From assembly GCF_003790525.1 (NCBI RefSeq), contig NZ_CP033635.1: 64,000 bases of DNA, one strand, 5' to 3'. The position numbers were made by a program. Positions within the stretch are counted from its first letter, which is position 1. Every line of letters begins with the position of its first letter. Source of the DNA: Escherichia coli (GTDB lineage Bacteria > Pseudomonadota > Gammaproteobacteria > Enterobacterales > Enterobacteriaceae). Of this stretch, positions 47,701-50,700 are shown in pieces.

Positions 47701-50700
47701 ACGATAAAGCTGCCCTGATTGCGAAATCTCGCGATACCTTTATTCGTCTGCTGAACGCCACCCCGAACGGTGTGATCCGCAACTCCGACGTGGCAAAAGG
47801 TGTGGTCGAAACCTCCCTGAACGTCGGTGTGGTGACCATGACTGACAATAACGTAGAAATTCACTGCCTGATCCGTTCTCTGATCGACAGCGGTAAAGAC
47901 TACGTGGTGAGCATGCTGGATTCGCTGGGTAAACTGGCTGGCGCGAAAACCGAAGCGAAAGGCGCATATCCTGGCTGGCAGCCGGACGCTAATTCTCCGG
48001 TGATGCATCTGGTACGTGAAACCTATCAGCGTCTGTTCAACAAGACGCCGAACATCCAGATTATCCACGCGGGCCTGGAATGTGGTCTGTTCAAAAAACC
48101 GTATCCGGAAATGGACATGGTTTCTATCGGGCCAACAATCACCGGTCCACACTCTCCGGATGAGCAAGTTCACATCGAAAGCGTAGGCCATTACTGGACA
48201 CTGCTGACTGAACTGCTGAAAGAAATTCCGGCGAAGTAATTATTTGATTTGCTGCCGGATGGCGTTTAATCGCCTTCCGGCAGTTTCATCCTTCATTATC
48301 CTTCGATAAAAGCCATCCCTGTGAACGTTCGTCGCGGGTTGCCACGTTCAATCTGGTGATGGAACATTCGCCGCTGCGATTTCAGCGCCGCGCTATTTTC
48401 CTGTTGCTGTTGTTCCAGCTTCCAGGCAATCAGTAATCGCGCCAGCCGTTTGTTAGCATGCTGACTGCGCTCTGACTGAACCTTCACGCTAATACCGGAT
48501 GCCAGATGCGTGGCGCGTACCGCCGAGTCGGTTTTATTGACATGTTGACCGCCCGGCCCCGACGAACGCAGCGTCTCATAACGGATCGCGTCGGATTGTT
48601 CCTGCTCATCAGCGGTAAAACGCCCAATGCCCAGAAACCAGTTTTTGCGCCCATGATGAGGCCGATACGGACTCGGACAAATCCACTGGATAGTGCCACA
48701 CCAGCTTTCGCTTAGAGCCCATGCGTTATCGCCATCCAGAGAAATCAGCGCCGAACGCATTGTGTCAGGATAGCGCCCCGCTTCTGTTTCCAGCACCGTT
48801 ATCGCGACGTCTTGTCGGGTAGCTTCTTTAATCAACCTGTCCAGCGCCTTTTTCACTGCCAGGCAACATTCTTCCGGCCCCTGAGCTGAGGAGAGTTGTA
48901 GCAAGATCATCCTTTTTTCCCTCCACTGTTTTTGAGCGTTAGCACCGGACGCAGTCGCGCGACAGGAATAATTAACCCAGCCTGCACCAGACATTGCACC
49001 ACGCTTTCAGCCGATTTATAAGCTTGTGGCGCTTCTTCAAAGATGAGTTGTTTATCGCGACAAATTACCCGGCTGCCAAGTTCAGTACGTGAGAGCTGCG
49101 TCGCTGTGTATTTCGCTGCCAGACGCCCTTTACACTCGGTGCGCCCCCATTTACGCCCAGCCCCATGCGCCAGCGAATGCAATGTTTCCTCACTCCTGAC
49201 GGGCTGAACCAGCCAGGAGTAATCACCGCGTGAACCGGGAATAATCACCAGACCGTTGTCATCCGGTGTGGCACCTTTACGATGCAACCAGCCCTGTTGA
49301 TCACCGATTCGACACGCGCTAACAAAGTTATGCGCCACATCCAGAACCGAATTACCGTTGGCCTTAATCTGTTGCATTATGCGCAAAGCGATCAGCTGGC
49401 GATTAATACGCGCAAACGCCAGCGCATCATCATGTTCCACAATATAACTTAGCGCGTCGTCACTGCCTTCAGGCAAACCATGATGCGAAAACGAGGCAAT
49501 ATGCCGCTGTAAAATAGACTGGCCCAAACCCCGCGAGCCGCTATGAACCAGCAGTTGCAGATGCTGCGCATCCAGACCTGTCAGTGCAAACAGTTCAGCG
49601 TCGATAATTTCATCAACTTGTTGCAGTTCTGCGAAGTGGTTTCCGCCACCGATGGAACCCAGCGAGCTGCGCCACGGATGCTGTGCTAACGCTGACGGCA
49701 GGTTTTCCTCCAGCCAGCTTTCTTCAGCAACGTCATCCAGCGCAGATAATCGCTTTTCAAACTTATCGGCGTTGTATTTGCGCGCGAAAATATCTGTTTG
49801 CCATAGCGCCATACCGCAGCCGATATCATTGCCGACCAGTGCCGGGTAAAAACGGCCTACGGAGAAGAACGCTGCGCCAATCGGATAGCCGCGTCCGGGG
49901 TGTAAATCTGGCATCCCTACTACGCGTTGCATGTCGGGTAAATTTGCCGTGGTGTGTAATTGTTGGATCGCTGAACTCTCGATCCACAGGTCATCAGATG
50001 CGATGGTAAGTACCGCATCAGATAAGGGACGAATATATTTGCCCATGTACCATTCCATTTATGAATAAAAATCAGGAAATGGCAGACGAATCCAGGGCAA
50101 GAAAAAAAGAATTAATCCTGGAAAGGTCTGCAAAGAGTCATTGATAAAGGATTTGTCATGATTTACCTCCTTGCAGTTTGTGGAATAAGAAAACGCGCAC
50201 ATACTAGGCGGGCGTTATTTTCTTTGCAAGCTGGATTTAATGTTGCGGTTTATATCGCATATAAAAATTAGTAAACCACGCTCCCCGGCATTCAACGCGC
50301 TGCTGCTTAACTGTCTGAAAACCATAACGTTCAAAAAAGGGTTTTGCGGTTATGCTGGCGTCCACCGTAAGTTCGGATTCAGACTTAATCAAAGGTTTTA
50401 ACAAAGCGCTGGCAACCCCGCGTCGGGTGTATTCAGGTTCAACAAATAACATATCGATATAATGTCCAATGCGGGTAATAAAACCAACCGGTTGTGCATT
50501 AATAACTGCAACCCGCACTTGTGATTTCGCGAGTTTCTCCTTCCAGCGAGATTCGTCAATCTGCGCCCAGGCGGCAATTTGTTGTGGTGAATAATGCTGA
50601 CTGGCGGTCATCGTAACCGCTCTAAGGAAAATAGCGCATAGTTGCTGAAAATCGCCAGGCTGATAGTTTCTTATTTGTATGTTATTCATAATATAAATTC

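Follow-up and report, generated by a model that had tools for sequence, protein, structure and literature searches.

An apparently functional rtcB2-prfH ribosome rescue-and-repair operon in Escherichia coli SMS-3-5, and a conserved leader that may respond to ribosome stalling

The window analysed here is a stretch of 64,000 nucleotides of Escherichia coli SMS-3-5 (contig NZ_CP033635.1 of assembly GCF_003790525.1), and it carries the genes rtcB2 and prfH in the interval between yafP and pepD (Table 1). An earlier reading made from the DNA alone (the sequence-only reading) had described an intact, full-length pair at 48296-50058, and we find that both minus-strand open reading frames are uninterrupted, with no internal stops. 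The TGA of rtcB2 occupies 48909-48907 and the ATG of prfH 48910-48908, so the ATGA overlap claimed in that reading is exact, and the 30 nt 5' of the prfH ATG read AACGCTCAAAAACAGTGGAGGGAAAAAAGG. This arrangement shows two genes that would be carried on one transcript and coupled in translation through the overlap and the Shine-Dalgarno (SD) sequence inside rtcB2. The 4-nt overlap is also annotated in other E. coli genomes and in other genera, and rtcB2 lies directly 5' of a co-oriented prfH, with stop and start adjacent or overlapping, in 12 other taxa. The gene order dinB-(yafNOP)-rtcB2-prfH-pepD is common to Salmonella, Kosakonia and Cronobacter. In SMS-3-5 the neighbouring toxin gene yafO is frameshifted. 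At the other end of the operon, the convergent genes pepD and prfH probably share a transcription end at the inverted repeat that separates them, a function that we only infer because the terminator scan made no call there.

The ligase had been given a length of 383 aa. Its family assignment stands and its length does not, as the true start is almost certainly ATG 50046, which gives 379 aa. An in-frame ATG upstream, at 50058, would produce the longer form, but four observations favour the shorter: the NF007153 model starts matching at residue 5 in the 383-aa numbering, the RefSeq coding sequence has the coordinates given in Table 1, the upstream ATG is missing from Citrobacter rtcB2, and the published catalytic His294 corresponds to the histidine of HGAGR in the 379-aa numbering only.

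Table 1. Features of the rtcB2-prfH region, in coordinates of the window
Feature	Position	Strand	Description
prfH	48296..48910	-	Peptide chain release factor H, 204 aa; stop codon within coordinates
rtcB2	48907..50046	-	3'-phosphate/5'-OH RNA ligase of the release-factor-H-coupled RtcB subfamily, 379 aa
ATGA overlap	48907..48910	-	Bases shared by rtcB2 stop TGA and prfH start ATG; read from sequence
GGAGGG Shine-Dalgarno of prfH	48919..48924	-	Within the rtcB2 coding sequence, 9 nt 5' of the prfH ATG
GC-rich inverted repeat	48251..48283	.	CTGCCGGAtGGCG...CGCCtTCCGGCAG, between convergent pepD and prfH; read from sequence
Segment missing in K-12-type genomes	48822..49848	.	1027 bp; from alignment with a K-12-type genome
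Putative sigma-70 promoter	50201..50229	-	-35 TTGCAA (50229-50224), 17-nt spacer, -10 TAGTAT (50206-50201)
Leader ORF and ribosome-binding site	50112..50172	-	SD AAGGAGGT (50172-50165), ATG 50159, TAA 50114-50112
Segment A	50167..50176	-	CUGCAAGGAG; contains the leader SD; complementary to CUCUUUGCAG (50137-50128) within the leader ORF
Hairpin P2	50082..50131	-	Outer GCAGAC (50131-50126)/GUCUGC (50087-50082), inner CCAGG (50121-50117)/CCUGG (50096-50092)
Tentative helix P3	50050..50082	-	CCAUUUCC (50082-50075) with GGAAUGG (50056-50050)

Membership of both proteins in their families is clear. PrfH matches TIGR03072 (IPR017509) with 328.6 bits against a cut-off of 166.65, over profile positions 1-200 of 200, and RtcB2 matches NF007153 (639.1 bits, cut-off 407), TIGR03073 (623.1 bits, cut-off 271.8) and the Pfam RtcB family (PF01139). 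The GGQ motif expected of a release-factor homologue is present as G120-G121-Q122 of PrfH, within a Pfam RF-1 domain at residues 106-194 (E = 2e-24). PrfH combines a domain for recognising ribosomal damage with a GGQ domain and lacks RF domain 1; structures of RF2 match PrfH residues 7-189, and the aligned part of RF2 is limited to residues 116-302. RF1, RF2 and ArfB share with PrfH the GGQ peptidyl-tRNA hydrolase domain, but what PrfH recognises is cleaved rRNA, not a stop codon or an unoccupied mRNA channel, and its scores against these three families stay far below their cut-offs (93 vs 370, 83 vs 400 and 34 vs 100 bits, respectively). The PrfH-CT subfamily, represented by Capnocytophaga gingivalis PrfH (PDB 9MOR/9MQ4), belongs to the same IPR017509/TIGR03072 family and has the same two-domain core. 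Its members, 225-250 aa in total, carry a basic C-terminal tail that in CgPrfH permits rescue of intact non-stop ribosomes; SMS-3-5 PrfH, at 204 aa, ends with EcPrfH and has no such tail, and therefore falls outside this subfamily. RtcB2 has the PF01139 family and the histidine-GMP ligation chemistry in common with RtcB1, which has about 408 aa and is encoded in the rtcBA operon under sigma-54/RtcR control. However, RtcB2 forms a separate sequence cluster, is linked to prfH and not to rtcA or rtcR, and repairs cleaved 30S subunits and not tRNAs, whereas RtcB1 does the reverse.

The residues on which function is known to depend are conserved in both proteins. PrfH is 97.5% identical, gapless and end to end, to chain 8 of PDB 7SA4, the PrfH solved by cryo-EM on a damaged ribosome, and it keeps R52, S53, R83, H85, H86, R88, K89, N90, R181, H184 and R189 at their published positions; these residues form the A1493-3'-phosphate pocket and the contacts to h18, S12, C1914 and C1054. 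The five differences (K20, I36, A44, P48 and M51 in SMS-3-5; R, V, G, S and L in 7SA4) all fall outside the published contact residues. In RtcB2, the motifs NDIGCG (73), GGGNHF (133), VHSGSRGLG (167), DVAHN (236) and AHGAGR (293) align with the same metal-binding and guanylylation motifs of solved RtcB structures, and the last of them contains His294, the residue mutated in Tian 2022. Compared with two other intact E. coli alleles, dN/dS is 0.13-0.16 for rtcB2 and 0.08 for prfH, with no indels over 1.75 kb. At the nucleotide level the SMS-3-5 rtcB2 allele is unusually divergent, with 93-94% identity to common alleles.

In K-12 the locus had been described as degenerate, and this is confirmed: ykfJ (b0235) and prfH (b0236) are annotated as pseudogenes in MG1655, and alignment with a K-12-type genome shows a 1027-bp deletion that takes away codons 1-30 of prfH as well as rtcB2 from about codon 67 onwards. 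The 6-bp direct repeat CGGGTA marks the two ends of the deletion, in prfH (48816-48821) and in rtcB2 (49843-49848). The orthologous K-12 locus lies in the same yafP-pepD interval, with a leader region 98% identical to that of SMS-3-5, and it additionally carries an ERIC-like insertion that separates the leader from the start of ykfJ. Of 5426 complete E. coli genomes, 2714 keep the segment that K-12 has lost, and most of the operon has been lost through at least two different deletions. We rejected plasmid-borne copies, as the 22 plasmid matches are F-prime plasmids with this chromosomal region or mis-labelled chromosomes. The SMS-3-5 genes have no internal stops, and their homology to RtcB and PrfH is far beyond chance and far above the cut-offs.

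The function of the pair has been studied elsewhere (Baranov 2006; Tian 2022; Maviza 2022, 2026), and the link to repair of ribotoxin-damaged ribosomes drawn in the sequence-only reading agrees with this literature. Rescue and repair of ribosomes cleaved by colicin E3-type ribotoxins have been shown for the intact pair by biochemistry, a cryo-EM structure and in vivo protection (PMC9304027, PMC9223846, PMC13166195). In E. coli ATCC 25922, which the same operon protects in vivo, PrfH releases peptide from damaged or cleaved 70S ribosomes and not from intact ones, and the cleaved 16S rRNA of 30S subunits is a substrate for ligation by RtcB2, whereas cleaved tRNA is not; the operon gave no protection against colicins D and E5. 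The ATCC 25922 pair (PDB 7SA4) shares with that of SMS-3-5 the species, chromosomal position, gene order and overlap, and its RtcB2 has the same length, catalytic His294 and NCBIfam families, but it is a different allele, and the five PrfH substitutions are conservative. By the steps established in the literature for these nearly identical proteins, toxins of the colicin E3 or CdiA-CT(ECL) type cut 16S rRNA between A1493 and G1494, and PrfH occupies the empty A site of the damaged, stalled 70S ribosome, reading the cleaved, 3'-phosphorylated A1493. Its GGQ loop hydrolyses the peptidyl-tRNA, allowing disassembly of the ribosome, and RtcB2 re-seals the 16S rRNA in the 30S subunit. Since the experiments were done in other strains, function is carried over to SMS-3-5 from 97.5% identity in PrfH and about 94% protein identity in RtcB2, the latter figure referring to two other intact E. 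coli alleles. We consider it highly likely that SMS-3-5 has the known rtcB2-prfH operon for ribosome rescue and repair in intact and functional form. The integrity of the pair had also been read as meaningful, which holds for its functional link but does not set this strain apart. The operon and its coupling, the deletion in K-12 and the connection to colicin E3 have all been published, and an intact copy is ordinary: the finding is real but known, because the intact operon, the deletion of about 1 kb in K-12 and the translational coupling were all described in 2006 (Baranov 2006, PMC1586002) and because half of the complete genomes keep the segment.

Upstream of rtcB2 lies a region of 190 nt whose leader ORF, hairpin and promoter are more conserved than the rtcB2-prfH genes themselves. 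The putative promoter starts 8 nt 3' of the yafP stop codon, and its hexamers and spacing are kept in Escherichia, Klebsiella, Citrobacter and an Enterobacteriaceae MAG despite differing surroundings; a generic promoter scan missed it because it matches the consensus at just 8 of 12 positions. Two other candidates were set aside at this point. A hairpin after yafP (AACGC...GCGTT followed by UUUUCUU) is more plausibly the -10/start region of this conserved promoter than a terminator, and read-through from the SOS-controlled dinB-yafNOP operon seems a less likely source of expression, given a conserved promoter just past the yafP stop. The leader ORF has 15 codons (MTNPLSMTLCRPFQD) and is unannotated in RefSeq. 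Fourteen taxa, ranging from Escherichia to Pseudomonas and Tahibacter, have an ORF of 13-15 codons at this position, with the same strong SD and the same CUUUGC(A/G)G core; in a metagenome pattern scan many matches were due to chance, with true leaders making up about 16 of 39 unique sequences. The leader differs from that of another E. coli allele at 2 of 189 positions (flanking-gene dS 0.09-0.21), and 5391 of 5426 complete E. coli genomes carry it with at least 95% identity. Genomes with a deleted operon keep it equally well, which is not readily accounted for by a role purely in cis regulation. One group of leaders, MINNLTPFAGPxS, reads the conserved CUUUGCAGG core in another frame, which indicates that the constraint acts on the RNA; together with an N-terminal half that varies, this also argues against a functional leader peptide sequence, which we rejected.

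Three pairings are predicted in this leader. The entire 5' arm of P2 is formed by the last six codons of the ORF, and its loop is U-rich and about 20 nt long. P2 folds with -18.4 kcal/mol (z = -4.8), and none of 200 shuffled sequences fold as well. All 31 distinct sequences pair in the outer helix, where three of the six pairs have changed on both sides, and RNAalifold recovered the hairpin independently. Across the hairpin, 93.6% of cells are paired (88.2 +/- 0.7 in shuffles) and 9 pairs are changed on both sides (3.7 in shuffles), values that none of 500 shuffles reach for either measure, although these statistics lean towards the structure because the alignment was fitted to it and the sequences are related; slid-alignment controls gave 15-47% paired. 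P1, the helix of segment A with the ORF, is an alternative to P2 that competes for GCAG. When the free leader is folded, nearly all species have P1 in their minimum-free-energy structures, and its core, GCAAAGG/CCUUUGC, is invariant, that is, conserved without covariation. In P3, GGAAUGG is a weak ribosome-binding region just 5' of the rtcB2 ATG, and a U-tract (50071-50064) lies in the loop. P3 is predicted in every species folded, with 85-97% of cells paired, one AU/UA exchange (11 vs 8 sequences) and an ambiguous register, and RNAalifold did not recover it. We rejected P2 plus the U-tract as a canonical intrinsic terminator, as the U-tract begins 11 nt 3' of P2 and the terminator scan made no call in 50047-50111. 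In Rfam the only match, to STnc350 on the opposite strand, is a chance hit below threshold (20.7 bits; gathering score 60).

A counterpart with a studied leader is found in Pseudomonas aeruginosa. ArmZ (PA5471) is 60% identical to SMS-3-5 RtcB2 over its full length, with the catalytic motifs kept, and armZ is followed by an overlapping 204-aa RF-1-domain gene, as rtcB2 is by prfH. The P. aeruginosa leader ORF has the same SD context (GCAAAGGAGG), the same core and the same (L/I)CR motif as that of E. coli; its copy, MIQFSTLCRLRLA, fits the published PA5471.1 (13 aa, Gln3, Phe4), and 12 further taxa supply intermediates between the two. PA5471.1 is an experimentally studied stalling sensor, for which the published model is stalling-dependent attenuation. 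The two leaders also differ. In Pseudomonas a 13-codon ORF is located some 250 nt upstream, with predicted terminators reported between it and armZ, whereas in E. coli the spacer is 65 nt, no canonical terminator is called, and the downstream segment is predicted to pair with the rtcB2 ribosome-binding region. GC-rich, terminator-like hairpins are found in the leaders of Pseudomonas sp. YH-1 and Tahibacter. As an intrinsic terminator was not found before rtcB2, the enteric leader may act on translation instead of transcription.

From these patterns we propose that the operon would have its own promoter and a 113-nt leader, with a 15-codon ORF homologous to PA5471.1, in which three complementary segments act as a classical attenuator. 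P1 would join the leader SD region to the 3' end of the ORF, P2 the 3' end of the ORF to a downstream segment, and P3 this downstream segment with its 3' neighbour to the rtcB2 ribosome-binding region. A ribosome stalled early in the leader ORF would favour P2 and loosen the rtcB2 start region, whereas with unhindered translation, or none, the start region would stay sequestered. In this way, slowed or damaged ribosomes would turn on expression of the repair genes, and PrfH, by clearing damaged ribosomes off the leader, could complete a feedback loop. In most species, the rtcB2 start region is predicted to be 3-6 kcal/mol cheaper to open when a ribosome sits at leader codons 2-5 than when it sits at codons 6-16. 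The predicted gain is modest: K. oxytoca does not show it, Citrobacter and Tahibacter show it weakly, and opening the start region still requires 8-10 kcal/mol in the 'on' state. Only early stalls on the leader ORF reduce this cost; a ribosome at the leader stop codon was rejected as a means of freeing the rtcB2 ribosome-binding site, because constraint folding gave no accessibility gain. From the leader and its homology, we infer that the repair operon would be induced by ribosome stalling. We give an even chance to the fuller model, in which a leader peptide homologous to PA5471.1 governs rtcB2-prfH in E. coli and other Enterobacterales, with stalling switching the three pairings and unmasking the rtcB2 start. 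The one sign of such induction is indirect, namely that K-12 ykfJ was reported to be inducible by 4-azaleucine (Morita 2006, as cited in PMC3516279). In the E. coli RtcB2-PrfH literature that we searched, control of the operon's expression is undiscussed, and, leaving aside Morita 2006 and 2009, the leader element seems to be unreported for E. coli. The papers searched on E. coli ribosome repair and on Pseudomonas armZ/MexXY do not cite each other.

The same leader could instead be a constitutive 5' UTR element, concerned with mRNA stability or serving as a standby or coupling site, or could encode a small protein or RNA of its own, in either case without sensing stalling. Its near-universal conservation at 95% identity or more, which extends to genomes that have lost rtcB2-prfH, is what such an element might show, as are the lack of a canonical terminator in the leader and a thermodynamic switch that is weak and not universal. 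However, the 3' end of the ORF is exactly the 5' arm of the covarying hairpin, a hallmark of translation-coupled switches, and genetic evidence of stalling-dependent control exists for the P. aeruginosa homologue. We regard a non-sensing element as less likely. A different question is whether the main role of the operon is to respond to stalled translation in general, caused by antibiotics, amino-acid analogues or tRNA defects, rather than to defend specifically against decoding-centre ribotoxins. This is the role described for the orthologous armZ-PA5470 pair of P. aeruginosa, where PA5470 is reported to relieve macrolide-induced stalling, and it would suit a leader homologous to PA5471.1, whose triggers are aminoglycosides, chloramphenicol and tRNA-CCA defects, as well as the reported induction of ykfJ by 4-azaleucine and the rescue of intact non-stop ribosomes by one PrfH subfamily. 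The behaviour of the E. coli proteins makes it improbable: PrfH acts on cleaved and not on intact ribosomes, SMS-3-5 PrfH retains every residue of the A1493-3'-phosphate pocket and lacks the basic tail behind the second activity of CgPrfH, RtcB2 leaves tRNAs unrepaired, and colicins D and E5 are not protected against. ArmZ is additionally an anti-repressor of MexZ, and we know of no MexZ target in E. coli for such a role, which also counts against a general-stalling function.

It is also conceivable that the pair is intact by chance, on its way to loss, and contributes nothing to fitness in this lineage. Half of the complete E. coli genomes have lost most of the operon by at least two different deletions, and the frameshift in nearby yafO and the divergent rtcB2 allele would fit a decaying region. 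Nevertheless, we regard this as very improbable, because dN/dS is 0.08-0.16 without indels, all catalytic and recognition residues are kept, the position between dinB and pepD is maintained in several genera, and the same operon protects ATCC 25922 in vivo.

For the present genome, the practical value of the finding lies in annotation, with ATG 50046 as the correct start of RtcB2. Judging from its genes, SMS-3-5 should withstand ribotoxins that attack the decoding centre better than K-12-type strains do. If the leader model is true, two literatures would be joined, that of E. coli ribosome repair and that of Pseudomonas armZ/MexXY induction, and the leader, once its role is confirmed, would be a simple reporter for ribosome damage. 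This would imply that damaged ribosomes induce their own repair system, and it would explain how the cell senses ribosome damage.

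The 2-kb locus is a 100% match to E. coli SMS-3-5 (NC_010498.1), and the window corresponds to positions 283042-347041 of that record in reverse complement. The sequence-only reading had described an intact pair of genes here, rtcB2 for an RtcB-family RNA ligase and prfH for release factor H, and neither of the two minus-strand ORFs is in fact interrupted. As it had also stated, the stop codon of rtcB2 and the start codon of prfH share bases in an ATGA at 48907-48910. In PrfH, which has 204 aa, the GGQ stands at residues 120-122. The ligase is full length, but the size of 383 aa that it was given had been counted from the first ATG (50058). 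Translation very probably begins at the ATG at 50046 instead, giving 379 aa, because the match to NF007153 begins at residue 5, the RefSeq annotation has 379 aa, Citrobacter lacks the upstream ATG, and His294 of Tian et al. is the HGAGR histidine in 379-aa numbering only.

The proposed homology of both proteins is borne out by NCBIfam scores well above the family cut-offs. PrfH reaches 328.6 bits with TIGR03072 ("peptide chain release factor H", cut-off 166.65) and stays far under all cut-offs of the RF1, RF2 and ArfB models, and the 379-aa RtcB2 reaches 639 bits with NF007153 (cut-off 407) and 623 bits with TIGR03073 (release-factor-H-coupled RtcB, cut-off 271.8); the Pfam domains are RF-1 and RtcB, respectively. 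An end-to-end, ungapped alignment gives 97.5% identity between PrfH and the E. coli PrfH solved by cryo-EM on a damaged ribosome (PDB 7SA4, chain 8). The residues checked were those for which Tian et al. give contacts to the cleaved A1493-3'-phosphate, h18/S12, C1914 and C1054; all of them (R83, H86, R88, R189, K89, N90, R52, S53, R181, H184, H85) are kept, and none of the five substitutions relative to 7SA4 falls on them. The C-terminal tail of the PrfH-CT subfamily, whose members rescue intact ribosomes as well, is absent from window PrfH. In RtcB2, the metal-ligand and guanylylated-histidine motifs line up with their counterparts in solved RtcB structures. Compared with two other intact E. 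coli alleles, the genes show no indels and a dN/dS of 0.13-0.16 (rtcB2) and 0.08 (prfH), so both are under purifying selection.

Baranov et al. (2006; PMC1586002) described the intact two-gene operon, regarded translational coupling as likely, and noted a deletion of ~1000 nt in K-12 and O157. Tian et al. (2022) reported that PrfH releases peptides only on 70S ribosomes with 16S rRNA cleaved between A1493 and G1494, that RtcB2 re-ligates the damaged 30S subunit and not tRNAs, that PrfH stimulates the repair of 70S ribosomes, and that RtcB2 and PrfH together reverse the toxicity of colicin-E3-like toxins in vivo. In ATCC 25922, protection against colicin E3 was shown by Maviza et al. (2022, 2026), who also showed that PrfH speeds up repair. 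These papers (PMC9304027, PMC9223846, PMC13166195) support the role in ribosome rescue and repair that had been suggested for the pair, and the rtcB2-prfH finding is already known, and the intact pair is common in E. coli.

The locus had been called degenerate in K-12, which agrees with the annotation of ykfJ (the rtcB2 remnant) and prfH as pseudogenes in MG1655. The suggested alignment, run with a K-12-type genome, shows one 1027-bp deletion that ends in 6-bp direct repeats (CGGGTA) at 48816 in prfH and 49843 in rtcB2, with loss of prfH codons 1-30 and of rtcB2 starting at about codon 67; the locus has at least one further deletion, which is larger. Of 5426 complete E. coli genomes, 2714 have the segment that K-12 lacks (2674 of these cover 80% or more of it), and therefore the intact operon is the state of about half the species. 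The order dinB-rtcB2-prfH-pepD is common to Salmonella, Kosakonia and Cronobacter, so this is an old locus within Enterobacteriaceae.

The rtcB2 of SMS-3-5 is a minority allele: over the K-12-deleted segment only 24 genomes are at least 99% identical to it, and 2542 are 90-95% identical. At 0.21, its dS to the common alleles is roughly double the value for pepD or yafP, suggesting that the locus holds old allelic lineages or has recombined. In the nearby yafNO toxin-antitoxin pair, a 1-nt insertion near 50970 (GCACTCCTACG vs GCACTCTACG) puts the toxin gene yafO out of frame, as RefSeq flags too; yafN, which encodes the antitoxin, is intact. A seemingly intact Flag-2 lateral flagellar cluster (lafU, motA, a fliA-like sigma factor gene, fliK/L, fliS, fliD, lafA, flgL, flgK) adjoins dinB, and its lafU has 924 bp vs 786 bp in the K-12-type genome. 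An island integrated beside tRNA-Thr carries a tyrosine integrase, an operon (1091-aa hypothetical protein, response regulator, alpha/beta hydrolase), an IS3 element, an antirestriction gene and a CbtA/YeeU toxin-antitoxin pair.

Features of the rtcB2-prfH locus, its leader and its surroundings; positions are those of the window unless a locus from another genome (L-number) is named
Feature	Position	Strand	Basis or detail
rtcB2, SMS-3-5 allele	48907-50046	-	
rtcB2 stop TGA	48909-48907	-	sequence
prfH start ATG	48910-48908	-	sequence
prfH Shine-Dalgarno GGAGGG	48919-48924	-	9 nt 5' of prfH start
yafP-rtcB2 intergenic region	50047-50236	-	190 nt
Promoter-like hexamers TTGCAA - 17 nt - TAGTAT	50229-50201	-	sequence
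Leader ORF Shine-Dalgarno, strong, AAGGAGGT	50172-50165	-	sequence
Leader ORF, 15 codons, MTNPLSMTLCRPFQD	50159-50112	-	sequence
P2 hairpin 5' arm GCAGAC...CCAGG	50131-50117	-	last six leader ORF codons
P2 hairpin 3' arm CCUGG...GUCUGC	50096-50082	-	sequence
3' of P2: CCAUUUCC, then U-tract, then GGAAUGG directly 5' of rtcB2 ATG		-	sequence
ERIC-like insertions	L002 3781-4097, L004 3308-3552, L010 2840-3000, L011 2910-3000, L014 2905-3000		
Leader loop insertion, Intestinirhabdus alba	L017 1240-1480		~190 nt
rtcB remnant with mexXY remark, E. coli	L005 1905-2111		
yafO	50699-51098	-	
Flag-2 cluster	about 52572-64000		
Island	about 28471-40402		
tRNA-Thr	40327-40402		
Island operon	32551-37432		

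Among the sampled complete E. coli genomes, including SMS-3-5 and MG1655, the leader upstream of rtcB2 carries no annotated features. At a threshold of 95% identity, 5391 of 5426 complete genomes have it; compared with an allele for which the dS of the flanking genes is 0.09-0.21, it differs at 2 of 189 positions, and it is more conserved than the rtcB2-prfH genes themselves. In K-12, some other Escherichia strains and Klebsiella spallanzanii, ERIC-like palindromes of 55-130 bp lie between the U-tract and the start codon of rtcB2/ykfJ, so that spacing there is tolerant; the insertion site seems to be recurrent, and the window is free of such an element near 50047-50063. The leader of Intestinirhabdus alba carries an extra stretch of about 190 nt within the hairpin loop, and prfH in this genome is broken into 144-aa and 61-aa pieces; this operon appears to be decaying.

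An ORF of 13-15 codons occupies the equivalent position, with the same Shine-Dalgarno context and a CUUUGC(A/G)G core, in all loci compared from other taxa (Klebsiella, Citrobacter, Salmonella, Kosakonia, Cronobacter, Intestinirhabdus, Limnobaculum, Pragia, Providencia, Proteus, Pseudomonas and Tahibacter). In P. aeruginosa the copy is MIQFSTLCRLRLA, and the gene 3' of it is 60% identical to window RtcB2. This copy agrees with PA5471.1 as published, a 13-aa leader peptide (Gln3, Phe4) encoded upstream of armZ-PA5470, and the E. coli leader ORF is homologous to it. Expression of armZ is reportedly coupled to ribosome stalling through attenuation at PA5471.1, where activation follows from an early stop codon and repression from translation to the end; K-12 ykfJ is induced by the translation inhibitor 4-azaleucine, according to a passage of a review (PMC3516279) that cites Morita 2006. 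In one RefSeq E. coli genome, an rtcB remnant bears a remark on drug-inducible mexXY expression, evidently carried over from ArmZ of P. aeruginosa; the annotation pipeline thus already treats E. coli rtcB2 and ArmZ as equivalent.

P2 alone folds at -18.4 kcal/mol (z = -4.8). Using a covariance model from ten enteric leaders, we aligned 33 leaders (31 distinct; 16 of the loci from a metagenome scan) and found 93.6% of cells paired vs 88.2 +/- 0.7 in shuffles and 9 pairs changed on both sides vs 3.7, figures that are biased towards the structure because the alignment was fitted to it and the sequences are related. None of 500 shuffles matched either observed value, and slid-partner controls gave 15-47% pairing. 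The outer P2 helix is paired in 100% of sequences, with exchanges AU/GC, AU/GC/GU and CG/UA, and RNAalifold recovers P2 independently. P3, whose pairing would mask the ribosome-binding region of rtcB2, is predicted in all species folded and is only partly supported; P1, which would pair the leader Shine-Dalgarno with the 3' end of the ORF, is invariant in sequence and so shows no covariation. In leaders of the MINNLTPFAGPxS group the conserved core lies in a different reading frame, so the constraint acts on the RNA rather than on the peptide.

With these helices, the leader would form a classical 1:2 / 2:3 / 3:4 attenuator. Under constraint folding with a ribosome footprint of 30 nt, opening the rtcB2 start region costs 3-6 kcal/mol less with the ribosome on leader codons 2-5 than with it on codons 6-16, a trend present in E. 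coli, Salmonella, Limnobaculum, Pragia, Providencia, Proteus, Kosakonia and others, absent in K. oxytoca, and weak in Citrobacter and Tahibacter. The modelled trend fits such an attenuator and also the early-stop and full-translation genetics of Pseudomonas. A terminator scan found no canonical terminator in the E. coli leader, so the enteric leader may act at the level of translation. That ribosome stalling on the leader raises rtcB2-prfH expression is, in our judgement, an evenly balanced proposition, and the structural details of the attenuator are less certain than this general claim. Expression of the operon is not discussed in Baranov 2006, Tian 2022, Maviza 2022 or Maviza 2026, and the leader is the sole element of the locus that may be new for E. 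coli.
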